Source of the DNA: a virus
Length of the DNA stretch: 17,584 nucleotides
Direction: 5' to 3' (one strand)
Virus record (IMG/VR): IMGVR_UViG_3300029827_000114
The notes under the pieces are model-generated. The model was given only the letters and a program-made list of their open reading frames with translations. It had not been told where the DNA came from and searched no databases. Both the position numbers and the translations under genes were made by a program. This document shows, piece by piece, positions 3 to 15,880 of this stretch. Each line of letters begins with the position of its first letter. Within the stretch, counting starts at the first letter, position 1.

Positions 3-194
3 ATTTTAGCTGAAGCTATTATGCATGATTTGGAACCTAGATTTCTTGATACACCCAAAGAGTGGATAAGTGAACGTGATGGTTTAGTATGCAGTAATGA
101 AGATTTGAAGGATTTTGAAAGAATTAGTTTGGATTCTGAATTGTCAGCTTTGAATTTTTGGAACAGGAGTATTGCGAACTCGAGTTCGTTGTAA
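3..194 (+). CDS. 3' end of an upstream CDS entering the window (partial), hypothetical protein
   Basis: Frame 3 is open from the window edge to TAA at 192-194 and is not in the supplied track. Its last codons span the first GCGAACTCGAGTTCG palindrome. No homology recognised. Confidence 0.3.
   Translation: MLAEAIMHDLEPRFLDTPKEWISERDGLVCSNEDLKDFERISLDSELSALNFWNRSIANSSSL
174..188. promoter_or_regulatory. Palindrome copy 1 (GCGAACTCGAGTTCG); Cheo/LexA-box-like CGAAC-N4-GTTCG
   Basis: Read directly: perfect inverted repeat, core CGAACTCGAGTTCG at 175-188. It lies about 20 nt upstream of the ATG at 210. Confidence 0.5.
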
Positions 195-209
195 AGAAGG
201 ATATATAAA

Positions 210-503
210 ATGGAATGGATAGGTGTTGATTTGGATGGGACATTGGCTGAGTATGATAAATGGCGTGGTCCTTCTCATATAGGTAAGCCTATTTCTAAAA
301 TGGTTGATAGAGTAAAAAGATGGCTTAAGGATGGAAAGGATGTTCAGATTTTAACAGCTAGAGTTCATAAGGATAATCCTGGTAAAGTTGAATCTGAATT
401 GGCGATTAATTTGTGGACTAAAAGAGTCTTTGGAAAATCGTTAAAGACTAGAGCTGATAAAGATTTGAATATGATTGAATTATGGGATGATAGATGTATT
501 TAG
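210..503 (+). CDS. Small HAD-superfamily phosphatase-like protein (possible 5'(3')-deoxynucleotidase type)
   Basis: N-terminal VDLDGTL (HAD motif I DxDGT), ILTAR (motif II Thr), a downstream Lys, and C-terminal ELWDD (motif IV DD), all within 97 aa. RBS AAGAAGGA upstream of the ATG. Confidence 0.55.
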   Translation: MEWIGVDLDGTLAEYDKWRGPSHIGKPISKMVDRVKRWLKDGKDVQILTARVHKDNPGKVESELAINLWTKRVFGKSLKTRADKDLNMIELWDDRCI

Positions 504-531
504 TTGCTTACTAATACTGGAGAAAGAGTTG

Positions 532-735
532 ATGGTAAAGAATAAAGTAATTATATCTTGGGAAATAGATGATTGTAAGATGTGTCCAAACTATAGGTTA
601 TCCCGTGGTATACATCAATGTAGTCTTAATATTGCATGTATGTTAAAAGTTAAATTTACTGTAAAAGATATGGTAAATGTTATTGAAATACCAATTCCAG
701 ATGAATGTCCATTACTTGAGGTAAAACAGGATTGA
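532..735 (+). CDS. Hypothetical small Cys-containing protein (start trimmed to ATG 532)
   Basis: ORF 475..735 overlaps the previous gene. The in-frame ATG at 532 follows GGAG (519-522) with a 9-nt spacer. CxxC plus an additional Cys suggest possible metal binding. Confidence 0.4.
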   Translation: MVKNKVIISWEIDDCKMCPNYRLSRGIHQCSLNIACMLKVKFTVKDMVNVIEIPIPDECPLLEVKQD

Positions 736-757
736 GAAAGTAAGATGAGGTTATAAG

Positions 758-1012
758 ATGGCTGTTTTTTATGAAGAACATGAAAAACCAACAAGAATAT
801 TTAGTTTTAAAGATACTATTGGTGATTTTCATTTTATTGATTTTACATTAATTTATAGAATAAGTATTCATGAAAATTGTGCGTCTGATTCATCTGATGT
901 ATCTATATTTTGGAATTTTAAAATTACTGGATTAATTAAAACTGAATTTAAGACAAGTAAAGATAGTGCAAAAAAAATAGCTAATGCATGGTGTATGTAT
1001 ATTAAGAGGTAA
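758..1012 (+). CDS. Hypothetical protein
   Basis: 84-aa ORF with GAGG upstream; no recognisable motif. Confidence 0.4.
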   Translation: MAVFYEEHEKPTRIFSFKDTIGDFHFIDFTLIYRISIHENCASDSSDVSIFWNFKITGLIKTEFKTSKDSAKKIANAWCMYIKR

Positions 1013-1016
1013 TTAA

Positions 1017-1283
1017 ATGAATGAAGATGACAGTAAGTTATCTATAGTTAAAAAAAGTAATGATAGTGTTGAGTTGTTTAGTTTATCTGCAATTTATACT
1101 CAAGATGCAGATTCTTGTAGTAATGAAACATGTCATGAATTGGAATTGAAGACAGATGATGCAGGTGGCGGAATGTATTATGTTTTATCTACGAAAAGAT
1201 GGGCTTTTGAAAGTGTTGATGAGATAGTAGGTATAATTGAAGATTTTCTGAAAAGAGTAAAGGATGGTGAGAATTATGATTGA
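1017..1283 (+). CDS. Hypothetical acidic protein
   Basis: 88-aa ORF starting 4 nt after the previous stop; no recognisable motif. Confidence 0.4.
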   Translation: MNEDDSKLSIVKKSNDSVELFSLSAIYTQDADSCSNETCHELELKTDDAGGGMYYVLSTKRWAFESVDEIVGIIEDFLKRVKDGENYD

Positions 1284-1554
1284 AATTATGAGTAAAATTA
1301 AATGTATAAAATGTGATTATATGGCTAAAGATATAGAGGATATGATGTGTCATATTGAAAAAGAACATGTTGATGTGTTTAATATGATTGAATCTATTAA
1401 GAATGTTGATCCAAATGAAAGAGGTAAAAAAATTGCTAGTGTTATTGAAGAAATGTTAGGAGAAAAGATTCATGGAAATATTAATTATGATTCTCTTAGT
1501 GATATGTATGCTTTAAATGGTATATGTTCAATATTGGAATTGATTGTTTATTAA
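1276..1554 (+). CDS. Hypothetical protein with C-x2-C-x12-H-x4-H spacing
   Basis: The track ORF starts at 1264, but the in-frame ATG at 1276 follows GGTGAG. The sequence CIKCDYMAKDIEDMMCHIEKEH has C2H2-like spacing, which may be coincidental. Confidence 0.35.
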   Translation: MIEIMSKIKCIKCDYMAKDIEDMMCHIEKEHVDVFNMIESIKNVDPNERGKKIASVIEEMLGEKIHGNINYDSLSDMYALNGICSILELIVY

Positions 1555-13979: not shown

Positions 13980-14148
13980 TAGAAAGATCATAGAATCAAA
14001 AAGAGGTTTTACGCTTGTTGAATTGATGATAGTTTTGATTATATTGGGGATTATGTTTTCCGTTTCCGTTTATGCAATAAGAAGTTTTTTGGCAGGGAAT
14101 AGAAATGTTGATGAAATTGTAGAAAATGAAAATGTAATAGAAATGTAG
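13966..14148 (+). CDS. Prepilin-type (type IV pilin / pseudopilin-like) mini-protein
   Basis: KRGFTLVELMIVLIILGI matches the class III signal / N-methylation motif G-[FYLIVM]-[ST]-[LT]-[LIVP]-E followed by a hydrophobic helix. The predicted mature part is only about 46 aa. Confidence 0.55.
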   Translation: MLRNNRKIIESKRGFTLVELMIVLIILGIMFSVSVYAIRSFLAGNRNVDEIVENENVIEM

Positions 14149-14188
14149 GTAATTATTTGGTTGTAAACCAAGAAAGGATTGATGAGTT

Positions 14189-14803
14189 ATGAAAAGGTTG
14201 TTTTTTGTTGGATTGTGTGTTCTTTTTGTTGGATGTGATTTTGGAAATACGGAATATAAAGAGCCACAGTCAAAATCAGGTGTGACTAAAGCCACAGTCA
14301 AGATTAAAACAGATGAGAATGGATTTACTGTTGAACAGAAAAACATTGGTAGACGTTTGAAAATTGATAATGAATCAGGAAGTATTAAACATTTGTATAT
14401 TGTATCATCCTATACTGGAGATGTTATTTTGTATTCAACAGTAAAAGGAAAAGTAACGAGTTCAGGAAAAAGATTAAATCCATATAGTGTAGCTGCTGGT
14501 GGAGTTGGAAAAGGTTCTAATCGTCCTGGTTATTATGGTATTAAAGTTTCAGTTGGTGGAAGTGTTTACCGTACTAGCGAGGTTCTTCAAGATGATGGAA
14601 CATATGGTCATTCAATGGAATATCTTTATTGGTGGGATATGAATGATATATATCGTCAAGTATATGTAACAGGAGGAGCAATGCCAATAATAAGTTCTGA
14701 GCCTTTGGCATTCCCAAAAGTTATTTTGAATGTGGATGATTCATGGTCGCCGAAAAAAAATAAGTCAGATGATGCATTATCTTCAAAAAAAAATTCTGAA
14801 TAA
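14189..14803 (+). CDS. Putative lipoprotein
   Basis: Signal peptide MKRLFFVGLCVLFVGC with a lipobox-like VGC. The mature part is Gly/Ser/Tyr-rich. Confidence 0.5.
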   Translation: MKRLFFVGLCVLFVGCDFGNTEYKEPQSKSGVTKATVKIKTDENGFTVEQKNIGRRLKIDNESGSIKHLYIVSSYTGDVILYSTVKGKVTSSGKRLNPYSVAAGGVGKGSNRPGYYGIKVSVGGSVYRTSEVLQDDGTYGHSMEYLYWWDMNDIYRQVYVTGGAMPIISSEPLAFPKVILNVDDSWSPKKNKSDDALSSKKNSE

Positions 14804-14838
14804 AATAACTTTTTTCCCACACAAATAGGAGACAAATC

Positions 14839-15819
14839 GTGGATTATAGTAAAGAAGCGATAGATAACACTATCTTGAAGGTTAGAGTAGGATCTCATTT
14901 ATTTGGGACAAATACAGAAGATAGTGATTTAGATATTGAAGGTATTTTTATGCCTCCAATATCTGTTTTATATGGTTTAGGGGAATGCAAGGAGGTTGAT
15001 TTAAGTGAAGCATCAAAGGATGAAAAGGGTCGGAATACATCTGATGCTATAGATTTTAAATTGAGAGAATACAGGACATTTATGCGATTAGCTATTCAGA
15101 ATAATCCTAATATTTTGAATATTGTTTTTTCAAATGATGAAAATGTTATTTTTCAAGACGAATTTGGAGAGCGATTGAGGGGAATGGCAGAGTATTTTCC
15201 ATATAGAGATGGGTTAAGAAGATATTATGGATATGCTCAATCTCAATTGCAGAAAATGACTATTAAGCCAGATAATTATTCTTATTTAAACAAAGCGTTG
15301 GATTTTTTATCTGGATGTAATCAAAAAGCTATTCTTGTTGATGTAATAAGATCAAAATGTAATCCATTGGCTAGAGTGTTTATTGATAAGGGGCCTGGTA
15401 AGCATGTTGTTGTTGCTGATTTGCATTTTGAAAGGGGACTTCAAGTAGGAAAAGTTGTATCGATGATTAATGGTAGATTAGAAAGGGCTAGTTCAAGAGC
15501 TGATAATTGGGAAAGATTTGGATATGATGTGAAATTTGCATCGAATTTGATTCAGATTTTAAAGCAAGGCATAGAGCTTGGTAAGACTGGTGTACTTAAA
15601 TTTCCATTAGGATATAGAGATTTGATTCTTGATATAAAGAAAGGCAAGTTTAAGTTATCTGAGGTTGATAATATGGCTACAGATTTGATTGAAGAAATGA
15701 TTTCTATTATGGAGGGCGAATGTTGTTTGCCAAAGAAGCCTAGAAGGTTGGAAATTGGAAATTTCACCATTATTGAAGTAAAGAAATGGTGTGACAAGCA
15801 GTTTGTTAGTTGTCATTAA
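14839..15819 (+). CDS. Pol-beta-superfamily nucleotidyltransferase (minimal NTase fold)
   Basis: GTG start with GGAG and a 7-nt spacer. GSHLFGTNTEDSDLDIEG matches hG[GS]x(9-13)Dh[DE]h, with a downstream acidic strand IVFSNDENV. The C-terminal part (ERFGYDVKFASNLIQILKQGIELGKTG) resembles predicted-nucleotidyltransferase families. Confidence 0.55.
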   Translation: MDYSKEAIDNTILKVRVGSHLFGTNTEDSDLDIEGIFMPPISVLYGLGECKEVDLSEASKDEKGRNTSDAIDFKLREYRTFMRLAIQNNPNILNIVFSNDENVIFQDEFGERLRGMAEYFPYRDGLRRYYGYAQSQLQKMTIKPDNYSYLNKALDFLSGCNQKAILVDVIRSKCNPLARVFIDKGPGKHVVVADLHFERGLQVGKVVSMINGRLERASSRADNWERFGYDVKFASNLIQILKQGIELGKTGVLKFPLGYRDLILDIKKGKFKLSEVDNMATDLIEEMISIMEGECCLPKKPRRLEIGNFTIIEVKKWCDKQFVSCH

Positions 15820-15822
15820 TAT

Positions 15823-15842
15823 AATGTTTCACGTGAAACATT
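15823..15842. promoter_or_regulatory. 20-bp perfect palindrome AATGTTTCACGTGAAACATT
   Basis: Read directly. It begins 4 nt after the NTase stop and could form a 9-10-bp hairpin (terminator) or act as an operator. Confidence 0.4.
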
Positions 15843-15865
15843 AGTGTTATTAAAGAGAGTTAATT

Positions 15866-15880
15866 GCGAACTCGAGTTCG
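15866..15880. promoter_or_regulatory. Palindrome copy 4 (GCGAACTCGAGTTCG)
   Basis: Read directly. It shares the extended context ATTGCGAACTCGAGTTCGTT with copy 1 and lies 9 nt upstream of a TTGACA -35. Confidence 0.5.

Follow-up and report, generated by a model that had tools for sequence, protein, structure and literature searches.

What keeps a short palindrome identical, letter for letter, at several gene junctions of one phage genome? The question is raised by a stretch of viral DNA of 17,584 nucleotides (IMG/VR record IMGVR_UViG_3300029827_000114; the whole of this stretch is called the window below), in which the 14-mer CGAACTCGAGTTCG occurs exactly at 175-188, 7492-7505, 13013-13026 and 15867-15880. 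A first-pass annotation of the sequence had drawn attention to these four copies and to the likeness of their core to the operator of LexA, the SOS repressor, and had suggested that they place three gene blocks under one damage- or repressor-controlled regulon. In this study, we followed the motif along its contig, into syntenic relatives and through metagenomic phages. A wider scan found more than 140 sites across a family of large uncultured phages, far beyond the four copies from which it started. From their sequence, invariance and placement, the copies are probably double-stranded DNA recognition sites for a protein. The overall explanation that we tentatively favour is that they are sites of a dimeric LexA-type protein that would act as roadblocks at gene boundaries.

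Results

Sites in the window and its contig

The copies are not a chance product of base composition. None of 200 dinucleotide-preserving shuffles of the window contained any match to CGAACTCGAGTTCG, even at two mismatches, and the first-pass annotation was right to regard the copies as non-random and to place them at gene-block boundaries. In slightly extended form, GCGAACTCGAGTTCG or its reverse complement begins at 174, 7491, 13013 (13012 when read as ACGAAC...) and 15866. The window makes up the end of a longer metagenome contig of 21.2 kb (L001) in the European Nucleotide Archive (ENA), and a fifth exact copy lies on the same contig 2.4 kb past the window. Beyond these five, the contig holds no match to the 14-mer at up to three mismatches. 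All five contig copies are identical at 14 of 14 positions, and every one of them is at a gene junction. C accounts for only about 9 % of window bases, which makes a C-rich 14-mer even more conspicuous; the G+C content (GC) is 31-38 %, and the GC skew of the coding strand, taken in 1-kb windows, is +0.31 to +0.61 and mostly +0.4 to +0.5.

All copies match CGAAC-N4-GTTCG at ten of ten positions. This is the SOS box of Bacillus subtilis and Staphylococcus aureus (PMC9578287, Table 1), and the identification of the core as the LexA operator consensus therefore stands.

All long open reading frames (ORFs) of the window are on the plus strand, and all genes are co-oriented. Copy 1 (174-189; GCGAACTCGAGTTCGT) lies within the last six codons of the ORF at 21-194, which ends in ..IANSSSL, and the ATG at 210 is 20 nt on. 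Copy 2 (7491-7506; GCGAACTCGAGTTCGC) is a perfect 16-bp palindrome whose first base is also the final base of the stop that closes the ORF at 7243-7491; about 200 nt downstream of it is the gene for a major-vault-protein-like (MVP-like) protein (7709-10348). Copy 3 (13012-13027; ACGAACTCGAGTTCGC) is found 8 nt past the stop at 13003 and 26 nt ahead of the ATG at 13054. Copy 4 (15866-15881; again GCGAACTCGAGTTCGT) is situated 46 nt past the stop (15819) of an RlaP nucleotidyltransferase gene, and a -35 box stands 8 nt on. Copy 5 (L001 20029-20042) falls within the last codons of an ORF, with the next ATG 15 nt on. The outer bases of the 16-mers are G..T at copies 1 and 4, G..C at copy 2 and A..C at copy 3, and copies 1 and 4 have 20 identical bases in common, ATTGCGAACTCGAGTTCGTT.

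The -35 box after copy 4 belongs to a sigma70-type promoter at 15890-15918 on the plus strand, made up of TTGACA (15890-15895), a 17-nt spacer and TGnTAAGTA with the -10 hexamer at 15913-15918. It is missing from our consensus scan because its -10 matches at only three of six positions. In the relative L004 it is kept as TTGACA-17-TGaTATGTT, with the -35 box, spacing and extended -10 conserved and a different spacer sequence. As read from the sequence, this promoter would drive the DUF3268 gene block; the centre of copy 4 is at about -51.5 of it.

Window proteins include MVP_shoulder (the MVP-like protein), RlaP nucleotidyltransferase, DUF3268, RHH, Tmk, DHH and a prepilin-like peptide. The MVP-like gene encodes 879 aa with an MVP_shoulder domain (E 3e-24), here in a phage; its bacterial homologues number in the thousands, with identities of about 40 % (Bacteroidota, Myxococcota, Riflebacteria), while close ones are a mark of this phage family. 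A putative gene at 7452-7607 has its start 40 nt ahead of copy 2, which it runs across (..LANSSSQ..); it is 51 aa long in the window, and its counterparts have 131-135 aa in L002 (6639-7046) and L003 (9047-9442).

Conservation in relatives and module junctions

Syntenic contigs were reached through homologues of the MVP-like protein, at 94 % identity in L002, 82 % in L003 and in L004-L006, and 57 % in L007 (GC 45 %). In L002, L003 and L004 the identical 14-mer stands at all five of the same junctions although the flanks diverge; at copies 2 and 5, both flanks in L004 are unrelated, yet the motif is kept. Taken singly, copy 1 is in place in L002, L003 and L004, copy 2 in L002-L006, copy 3 in L002-L005, and copy 4 in L002-L005 with unchanged spacing to TTGACA. 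Some sites also persist in much more distant lineages. Identical sites that hold their place while the flanks diverge exclude recent spread and indicate purifying selection on each copy.

This settles part of what the first-pass annotation had left as alternatives, a dedicated repressor or the recent spread of one regulatory module. The second is refuted by sites in place at 82-94 % MVP identity, while stringent recognition by a dedicated protein agrees with the invariance of both N4 and the arms. That homologous phages might conserve the positions of the motif, which had been proposed as a check, is what L002, L003 and L004 show for all five sites.

Coding constraint was considered as a cause and rejected. 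Copies 1, 2 and 5 can be translated as ANSSS, a reading that L004 has lost, which shows that coding is not what is constrained; intragenic copies elsewhere use all three frames.

One of the relatives, L003 (also L011), is CAYUTF010000008.1 (GCA_964447495.1), a 65-kb contig of the lineage in a metagenome-assembled genome (MAG) named 'uncultured archaeon isolate binchicken_co196_315', and the only MAG contig that a scan of genome contigs matched. It is probably a mis-binned phage, since it carries bacterial signals: a GFTLVE prepilin motif, a lipobox, Shine-Dalgarno (SD) sequences and TTGACA promoters.

As a test of module junctions, the contig was compared with L002, L003 and L004 by blastn. 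Three blocks of homology with L004 have an edge close to a motif: q190 is 1 nt past copy 1, q13010, where a block starts, is 2 nt short of copy 3, and q20028 is the first base of copy 5. A block shared with L003 starts at q12998, 14 nt before copy 3. Homology with the relatives stops 1-24 nt past copy 1, and insertions are found 35-42 nt downstream of copy 2 in L002, L003 and L004. About 30 block edges fall in 20 kb, from which some 0.1 coincidences within 0-2 nt of a motif edge would be expected, and three were observed. Judged by these alignments, the motif sites appear to be boundaries of exchangeable modules. Because every copy is kept exactly, we regard the mosaic junctions as a consequence of conserved microhomology and not as the selected function.

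Consensus and distribution

IMG/VR was scanned for RCGAACTCGAGTTCGY, and 78 stretches matched. Single matches in contigs above 44 % GC make up 43 of them, about the chance number; the other 35 are low-GC, high-skew stretches from about 15 contigs, most of which belong to the window's lineage. All motif-bearing stretches of a contig were taken in, so that site counts per contig are complete. Within the lineage, five sites lie in 30.6 kb with the genes for an SNF2 helicase, small and large terminase, portal and capsid, six in 42.2 kb with tail sheath, tube, tape measure and baseplate, and five in 41.9 kb with tRNA genes, methyltransferases and GroES. Neighbouring sites in the lineage are separated by 2.0-9.2 kb, none of the 22 intervals being shorter than 2 kb, and away from the window's contig the motif comes up about every 4-7 kb. 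Contigs of the lineage were found in salt-marsh and sediment samples. Each phage genome has about 20 or more sites. A single regulon of three gene blocks falls far short of this picture, in which five to six sites per 30-42 kb occur genome-wide, structural genes included.

The motif also extends beyond the lineage. V34, a 38-kb phage contig (GC 37-39 %), has nine exact copies together with its own terminase, capsid, sheath, tape measure and Bro-type antirepressor, and no common protein was detectable between it and the window's lineage among the motif-bearing stretches compared. What the two do share is an early-promoter/5'-untranslated-region (5'-UTR) cassette plus a 53-aa gene, at 83 % nucleotide identity, from which we conclude that they draw on one gene pool. 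L007 and L057 (GC 44-45 %) have the same arms, with TCAA, TTAA or TCGA as N4. Scans for these N4 variants found sites in many large IMG/VR phage contigs of 75-195 kb and GC 32-55 %, which share portal, terminase and other proteins with the window's lineage.

Comparison of these sites redefines the motif. N4 is TCGA in the window's lineage and TTGA/TCAA, TTAA, TGGA/TCCA or TTTA in family contigs; its first base is always T and its last always A, also in six copies that lay outside the selection made by the search pattern. With T..A fixed in N4, the site becomes RCGAACT-NN-AGTTCGY, that is, invariant 7-bp inverted arms around two free central base pairs. Over 669 kb of family DNA, CGAACT-NN-AGTTCG was matched exactly at 150 sites and with a single mismatch in an arm at 12 (shuffles 0-2), and no compensated palindromic variant with both arms changed was present. 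The asymmetric centres show no strand preference relative to local coding, with 30 TCAA and 27 TTGA.

In other family members, copies can lie 40-350 nt apart. One member of 104-157 kb has two copies at a distance of 40 bp (L218 9428 and 9468, equivalent to L255 4077 and 4117), which flank a small terminator-like hairpin in a spacer of about 290 nt, a tandem layout not seen in the window's lineage.

Searches further afield returned little. A metagenome motif scan yielded more phage relatives and scattered single matches, and no multi-copy bacterial contig among the matches listed. Megablast of the window against GenBank phages and a peptide-pattern search of IMG/VR for the MVP-like protein gave no match, and tblastn of two terminases against GenBank phages gave at most 33 % identity for one and nothing for the other. 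A literature search for the 14-mer brought up only short hairpin RNA (shRNA) constructs with a CTCGAG loop.

Placement relative to genes and promoters

Placement was examined for 140 distinct sites, of which 14 % are intragenic and 108 are intergenic with both neighbours called. Among these 108, 56 lie at most 10 nt from the upstream stop, 55 at most 30 nt from the downstream start, and 41 in spacers of at most 60 nt; in longer spacers, the stop is the closer of the two for 37 sites and the start for 30. Most commonly, the order is stop, motif, SD and start, and the SD begins 0-4 nt past the motif.

Most sites have no downstream promoter, and after three of the five contig copies the next start codon is only 15-26 nt away, a gap that holds no promoter. 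Where a sigma70-type promoter does follow, as at copy 4, in V34, in L007 and in several family members, the motif centre is at -46.5 to -75.5 and without helical phasing. Sites so close to a start, or at so variable a distance from a promoter, are neither promoter-overlapping operators nor fixed-position activator sites. The motif was also considered as a promoter in its own right, a candidate rejected because it is palindromic, has some intragenic copies and lacks a conserved partner element.

Intragenic copies are found in three reading frames and are kept in diverged lineages, one of them at the cost of rare CGA/CGC arginine codons; this conservation fits a DNA site better. The gene for the SNF2-family helicase downstream of copy 5 (L002 19622 onward; L063 (V88_4) 2395-5901) holds one intragenic copy (..NELEFV..), and in some relatives the helicase carries an intein with a LAGLIDADG domain.

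DNA site versus RNA element

With all genes on one strand, every copy is transcribed, and the motif might act as RNA: a 6-bp hairpin with a UNNA tetraloop between cistrons, with a part in processing or message stability, in factor-dependent termination or attenuation, or in translation, where it would be a protein-bound operator just before the SD. The layout is compatible with this, as about half of the intergenic sites stand 7-30 nt before a start with the SD directly following, about half are within 10 nt of a stop, and the outer R..Y can pair as G-C, G-U or A-U in most copies. The hairpin is put at -5 to -8 kcal/mol, with -5.0 to -6.7 kcal/mol when folded alone, and is predicted in four of the five contexts of the window's contig. 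It is, however, weak; another fold wins at copy 1, and z-scores are unremarkable.

The first-pass annotation had allowed that the motif could be no more than a terminator hairpin. An intrinsic (Rho-independent) terminator is not supported, given that the hairpin is weak, that most copies lack a U-tract and are followed instead by A-rich SD regions, and that a lenient terminator scan flagged only copy 4 (plus strand) and copy 3 (minus strand), a total equal to the shuffle expectation. Some copies themselves precede a strong canonical terminator hairpin. Rfam has no family at any motif copy, its two matches elsewhere on the contig being at chance level, and a tRNA or ribozyme identity was likewise rejected.

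The pattern of conservation is harder still to reconcile with RNA. The stem never covaries (150 exact sites, none compensated), the conserved inner T and A cannot pair in the hairpin because only a 2-nt loop would remain, and the loop centre varies in both orientations. An invariant stem without covariation over GC 32-55 %, combined with a centre that varies both ways, points to a dimeric protein reading half-sites in double-stranded DNA; it is the reverse of the pattern usually seen where proteins recognise hairpins. Conserved intragenic copies would, as RNA, cut or stall essential mRNAs, and at copy 4 and sites like it, the following gene has its promoter downstream of the motif. An RNA element is thus unlikely in our view, and we continue with the motif as a DNA site.

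Candidate binding proteins

The LexA-box core makes LexA an obvious candidate. An approximate B. subtilis LexA sequence was searched against all ORFs of the collected stretches. Four family members encode proteins of 96-159 aa that align only to the N-terminal winged helix of LexA (L394 10001-10480, L397 9953-10417, L400 9977-10267 and L395 9998-10408); these are relatives and not the window itself. All four score 36-80 bits with the Pfam family LexA_DNA_bind (PF01726; cut-off 23.7) and have no Peptidase_S24 domain, and a profile built from them matched only LexA N-terminal domains in PDB. Three of their genomes have motif copies within 20 kb of the truncated LexA gene: two in X12 (L394), three in X3497 (L397) and four in X2326 (L400). 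In X3497 the gene is directly upstream of an RlaP homologue. The nearest cellular relatives of the phage proteins are full-length LexA of Myxococcota, with 50-58 % identity over the domain.

LexA-box arms, together with proteins that comprise only LexA's DNA-binding domain in motif-bearing relatives, make a LexA-family protein the most likely binder. Resting as it does on sequence comparison, the assignment to a LexA-family winged-helix protein seems to us about evenly poised between right and wrong. In the window's phage, the binder could be a phage-encoded truncated LexA homologue, host LexA or both, or its gene could be elsewhere in the genome. The involvement of LexA suggested by the first-pass annotation is thus supported in one respect, by truncated homologues in motif-bearing relatives, and fails in another, as the sites are not placed like SOS operators (15-26 nt to a start, or -46.5 to -75.5 from a promoter).

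Other proteins fit less well. The RHH protein at 16404-16616, which had been named for binding assays, is confined to closest relatives and unlikely to be a universal binder, because L004 lacks a homologue of it and yet retains the full set of five sites. A pair of XRE-type helix-turn-helix (HTH) genes (HTH_31) was rejected in the same role since it is confined to the window's lineage. No ParB or other candidate binder was found among the proteins scanned.

Discussion

In the explanation that we tentatively favour, a dimeric and highly sequence-specific protein, most likely of the LexA family, would bind about 20 or more sites in each genome. From cistron and operon boundaries, it would limit read-through between gene blocks as a roadblock or insulator, in the manner of the L5 stoperators; it would not work as an operator that overlaps a promoter. 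Exchange of gene modules at the identical 16-mers would come as a side effect. Which protein binds in this phage, and that it acts as a roadblock, are both what we infer. A roadblock model fits in that intragenic sites are tolerated, spacing to promoters is variable, and late operons and early regions both hold sites; it also requires that binding be conditional, as many sites stand just before genes that must be expressed. Argued as it is from analogy, the roadblock or insulator role, considered for itself, is possible rather than probable.

Several observations weigh against this explanation. Searches by phmmer and with a custom HMM found no LexA-like gene in the window, its contig, the motif-bearing stretches of its lineage or V34, and none is present at two places syntenic to its location in relatives. 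Conversely, the L008/L395 lineage (GC 60 %) has a truncated LexA gene and no motif in about 25 kb, so that gene and dispersed motif are not strictly linked. The cellular lexA genes nearest to the phage proteins show CTGAAC-N19-GTTCAG upstream and not this motif. In known SOS regulons, N4 and often the arms vary between sites, and the invariance seen here is far stricter. A roadblock placed 15-26 nt before a start inside an apparent operon would block needed expression unless it were conditional. No integrase or immunity region, such as would make silencing expected, was found in the sequence examined, and the lineage has at least 20 tRNA genes, as many lytic phages do. Finally, a hairpin with a U-NN-A tetraloop could conceivably be what a protein reads. 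The tRNA genes are arranged in two clusters, L060 and L043 (IMGVR_UViG_3300034989_000084).

In its boldest form, the roadblock explanation would extend to the whole phage family (about 75-195 kb, GC 32-55 %), wired with at least 20 LexA-type operators per genome at which the host SOS repressor, or an uncleavable phage LexA domain, gates lytic read-through, or through which the replicating genome titrates host LexA. We find this doubtful. If it is true, phage-wide gene expression would be coupled directly to the SOS state of the host by roadblocks and not by promoter operators. Confirmation of roadblocks at these sites would mean that roadblock-type global regulation has arisen in phages a second time, independently, and that the LexA fold has been put to a new use, and would make CGAACT-NN-AGTTCG at gene junctions a tag for this family and for its module boundaries in metagenomes. 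The combination of a LexA-box sequence with truncated LexA genes in relatives provides a concrete, testable candidate for the binder.

Beside the RNA element considered above, the rival that fares best is another dimeric DNA-binding protein with a non-transcriptional task, for example genome organisation or condensation, a barrier to or partner of ParB at parS, or a 'sponge' for a host factor. Such a protein would produce the same dyad signature and invariance and would tolerate intragenic sites. The spacing in the window's lineage, never below 2 kb, would suit it, and the lineage has canonical parS palindromes at four or more places, at two of which a motif copy is less than 100 nt away. For the repeat of Cluster O mycobacteriophages, the authors judged a transcriptional role unlikely (PMC4351075). 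We nevertheless consider a non-transcriptional binder improbable. There is the lack of a ParB or other candidate among the proteins scanned; the motif, as read from its sequence, is unlike parS or NBS half-sites; copies 40-350 nt apart in other family members do not keep to any such spacing; and the preference for gene boundaries, along with the deep positional conservation of individual sites, suggests that position matters.

The parS element nearest to the motif deserves separate mention. At 15825-15840, 25 nt upstream of copy 4, is a perfect 16-bp palindrome, TGTTTCACGTGAAACA, which we take to be the canonical chromosomal parS consensus and which is not shown to belong to the motif system. 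A search of the window for parS-like sequences gave this one match, and one of 200 shuffles reached it at up to two mismatches. Its 14-bp core, GTTTCACGTGAAAC, is kept in L002-L005 and recurs at three or more other places in the lineage, among them L019 4152, L037 1598 and L041 12312; the occurrence at L019 4152 is about 65 nt from a motif copy.

Ordinary SOS operators would be the most conventional reading, and the one closest to the first-pass annotation: host LexA would repress downstream promoters of the MVP-like (vault) gene, the nucleotidyltransferase (NTase)/DUF3268 block and the early block as a damage-inducible regulon. The ten-of-ten match of the core to the SOS box (PMC9578287) is what this predicts, TTGACA and TG-extended -10 promoters and strong GGAGG-type SD sequences are in keeping with it, and phages regulated by host LexA are known, such as GIL01 (PMC6182141). 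The placement of the sites speaks against it. Three of five contig copies leave no room for a promoter before the start and share no -10/-35 upstream, and at sites that do have a following promoter, the motif stands upstream of its -35 and leaves -35, -10 and +1 uncovered. Further points against it are the number of sites, about 20 or more per genome with some in structural operons and inside genes, the invariance of arms and T..A, and the near lack of degenerate sites; in addition, a host LexA of this specificity is putative. We therefore hold ordinary SOS operators to be quite improbable.

The weakest rival, a recombination linker or selfish mini-palindrome in which the 16-mer is kept for module exchange between co-infecting phages or for its own spread, can draw on the block edges 0-2 nt from copies 1, 3 and 5, on the indels 35-42 nt from copy 2 and on the presence of the motif in the otherwise unrelated V34 with its shared promoter cassette, and is very unlikely all the same, because 16 bp of identity is short for homologous recombination, because a conserved island in a diverged spacer by itself makes alignments start or stop there, and because sites that are exact and in place over long divergence, even in genes with costly codons, need direct purifying selection on every copy. 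Repeat-mediated indels of a like kind are seen with the Cluster O repeats (PMC4351075).

Two further elements of the lineage were seen in passing. An early-promoter cassette (TTGACA, 17 nt, TAAAAT, the 5'-UTR hairpin GCTCAACAAGATGTTGAGC, SD and ATG) is present in several copies in the lineage and is shared with V34, its loci being L019 1-209 (minus strand), L043 6723-6799, L102 10457-10538, L160 11313-11383, L061 315-516 and L093 4827-5033. In L100, the motif stands in place of the part of this cassette that holds the -35 and spacer. A search with a 16-mer of the cassette for more stretches of the lineage gave almost only chance matches. The second element is a region in which V34 and the lineage are 80 % identical over 101 nt (L061 8088-8187 against L124 10495-10594) and which contains repeated near-palindromes resembling GAATAAATATTC; by its sequence, it looks like the operator cluster of a different regulator.

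Relation to known systems

In mechanism, the motif is best compared with the stoperators of phage L5 and Cluster A, about 24-36 near-identical sites for the gp71 repressor in short intergenic spaces genome-wide, also in structural operons. Contact with a stop or start codon is frequent, and what they block is elongation and not initiation. As with stoperators, many near-identical sites are found here in short intergenic spaces, and late operons are included (contigs with terminase, portal, capsid, sheath and tape-measure genes). Stoperators, the one set of genome-wide intergenic operators that is well understood, are specific to actinophages. They differ in being 13 bp long, asymmetric and of fixed orientation, whereas our sites are palindromic and their centres are divided 30 to 27. 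Moreover, stoperators are bound by the immunity repressor of a temperate phage, while the roadblock proposed here is a deduction from DNA sequence.

As a phenomenon, the motif most resembles the dyad repeat of Cluster O mycobacteriophages, a 17-bp TGTTCGG-NNN-CCGAACA with more than 30 dispersed copies (Cresawn et al. 2015, PMC4351075). Both have invariant 7-bp inverted arms, a variable centre without strand preference and very few one-mismatch sites, both mix short-intergenic, gene-start-proximal and intragenic positions, and both are associated with indels; dimeric binding was inferred for Cluster O as well. The resemblance is one of kind and not of sequence or lineage. The Cluster O arms also contain GTTCG and CGAAC, in the opposite order (GTTCG...CGAAC, as against CGAAC...GTTCG in our phages), and they enclose 3 bp where ours enclose 2 bp. 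The Cluster O repeat does not go beyond a single cluster, whose genomes are near-identical and whose hosts are GC-rich actinobacteria, in contrast to the deep family with GC 32-55 % described here. No LexA-like gene was linked to it, and neither its binder nor its function was found.

With the Gram-positive LexA SOS box (Cheo box), the motif shares identical 5-bp arms and 4-bp spacing (PMC9578287). SOS boxes overlap the promoters of damage-inducible genes, occur singly or a few to an operon, and differ from one another in N4 and frequently in the arms too. The sites studied here, on the other hand, are invariant and at cistron boundaries, with an additional T..A in N4 and R..Y outside.

A precedent for a truncated LexA in a phage is gp6 of GIL01, a phage-encoded homologue that binds a palindrome, in a phage that also has dinBoxes for host LexA/gp7 (Fornelos et al. 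2018, PMC6182141). Like gp6, the proteins of our phage family, encoded in relatives only, consist of the LexA winged-helix DNA-binding domain alone. In the 15-kb tectivirus GIL01, gp6 acts at one site (GaCACAC GTGTGaC) at -43.5 to activate a single late promoter. Unlike this class II activator site over the -35, the sites examined here are dispersed, LexA-box-like and at variable distance from promoters.

The PeSL elements of T4-type phages, which combine an early promoter with a terminator-like stem-loop, flank exchangeable modules at mosaic junctions. Our motif is likewise a short repeat at module junctions, but it has no promoter of its own. The early-promoter cassette of the lineage, for its part, resembles the mobile promoter/stem-loop cassettes of T4-type phages.

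In conclusion, the closest known phenomenon is the Cluster O dyad repeat and the closest known mechanism is the stoperator. The present case differs in its LexA-box arms, the symmetry of the sites in comparison with stoperators, their phylogenetic depth, the range of hosts as judged from GC, and the truncated LexA genes in relatives.

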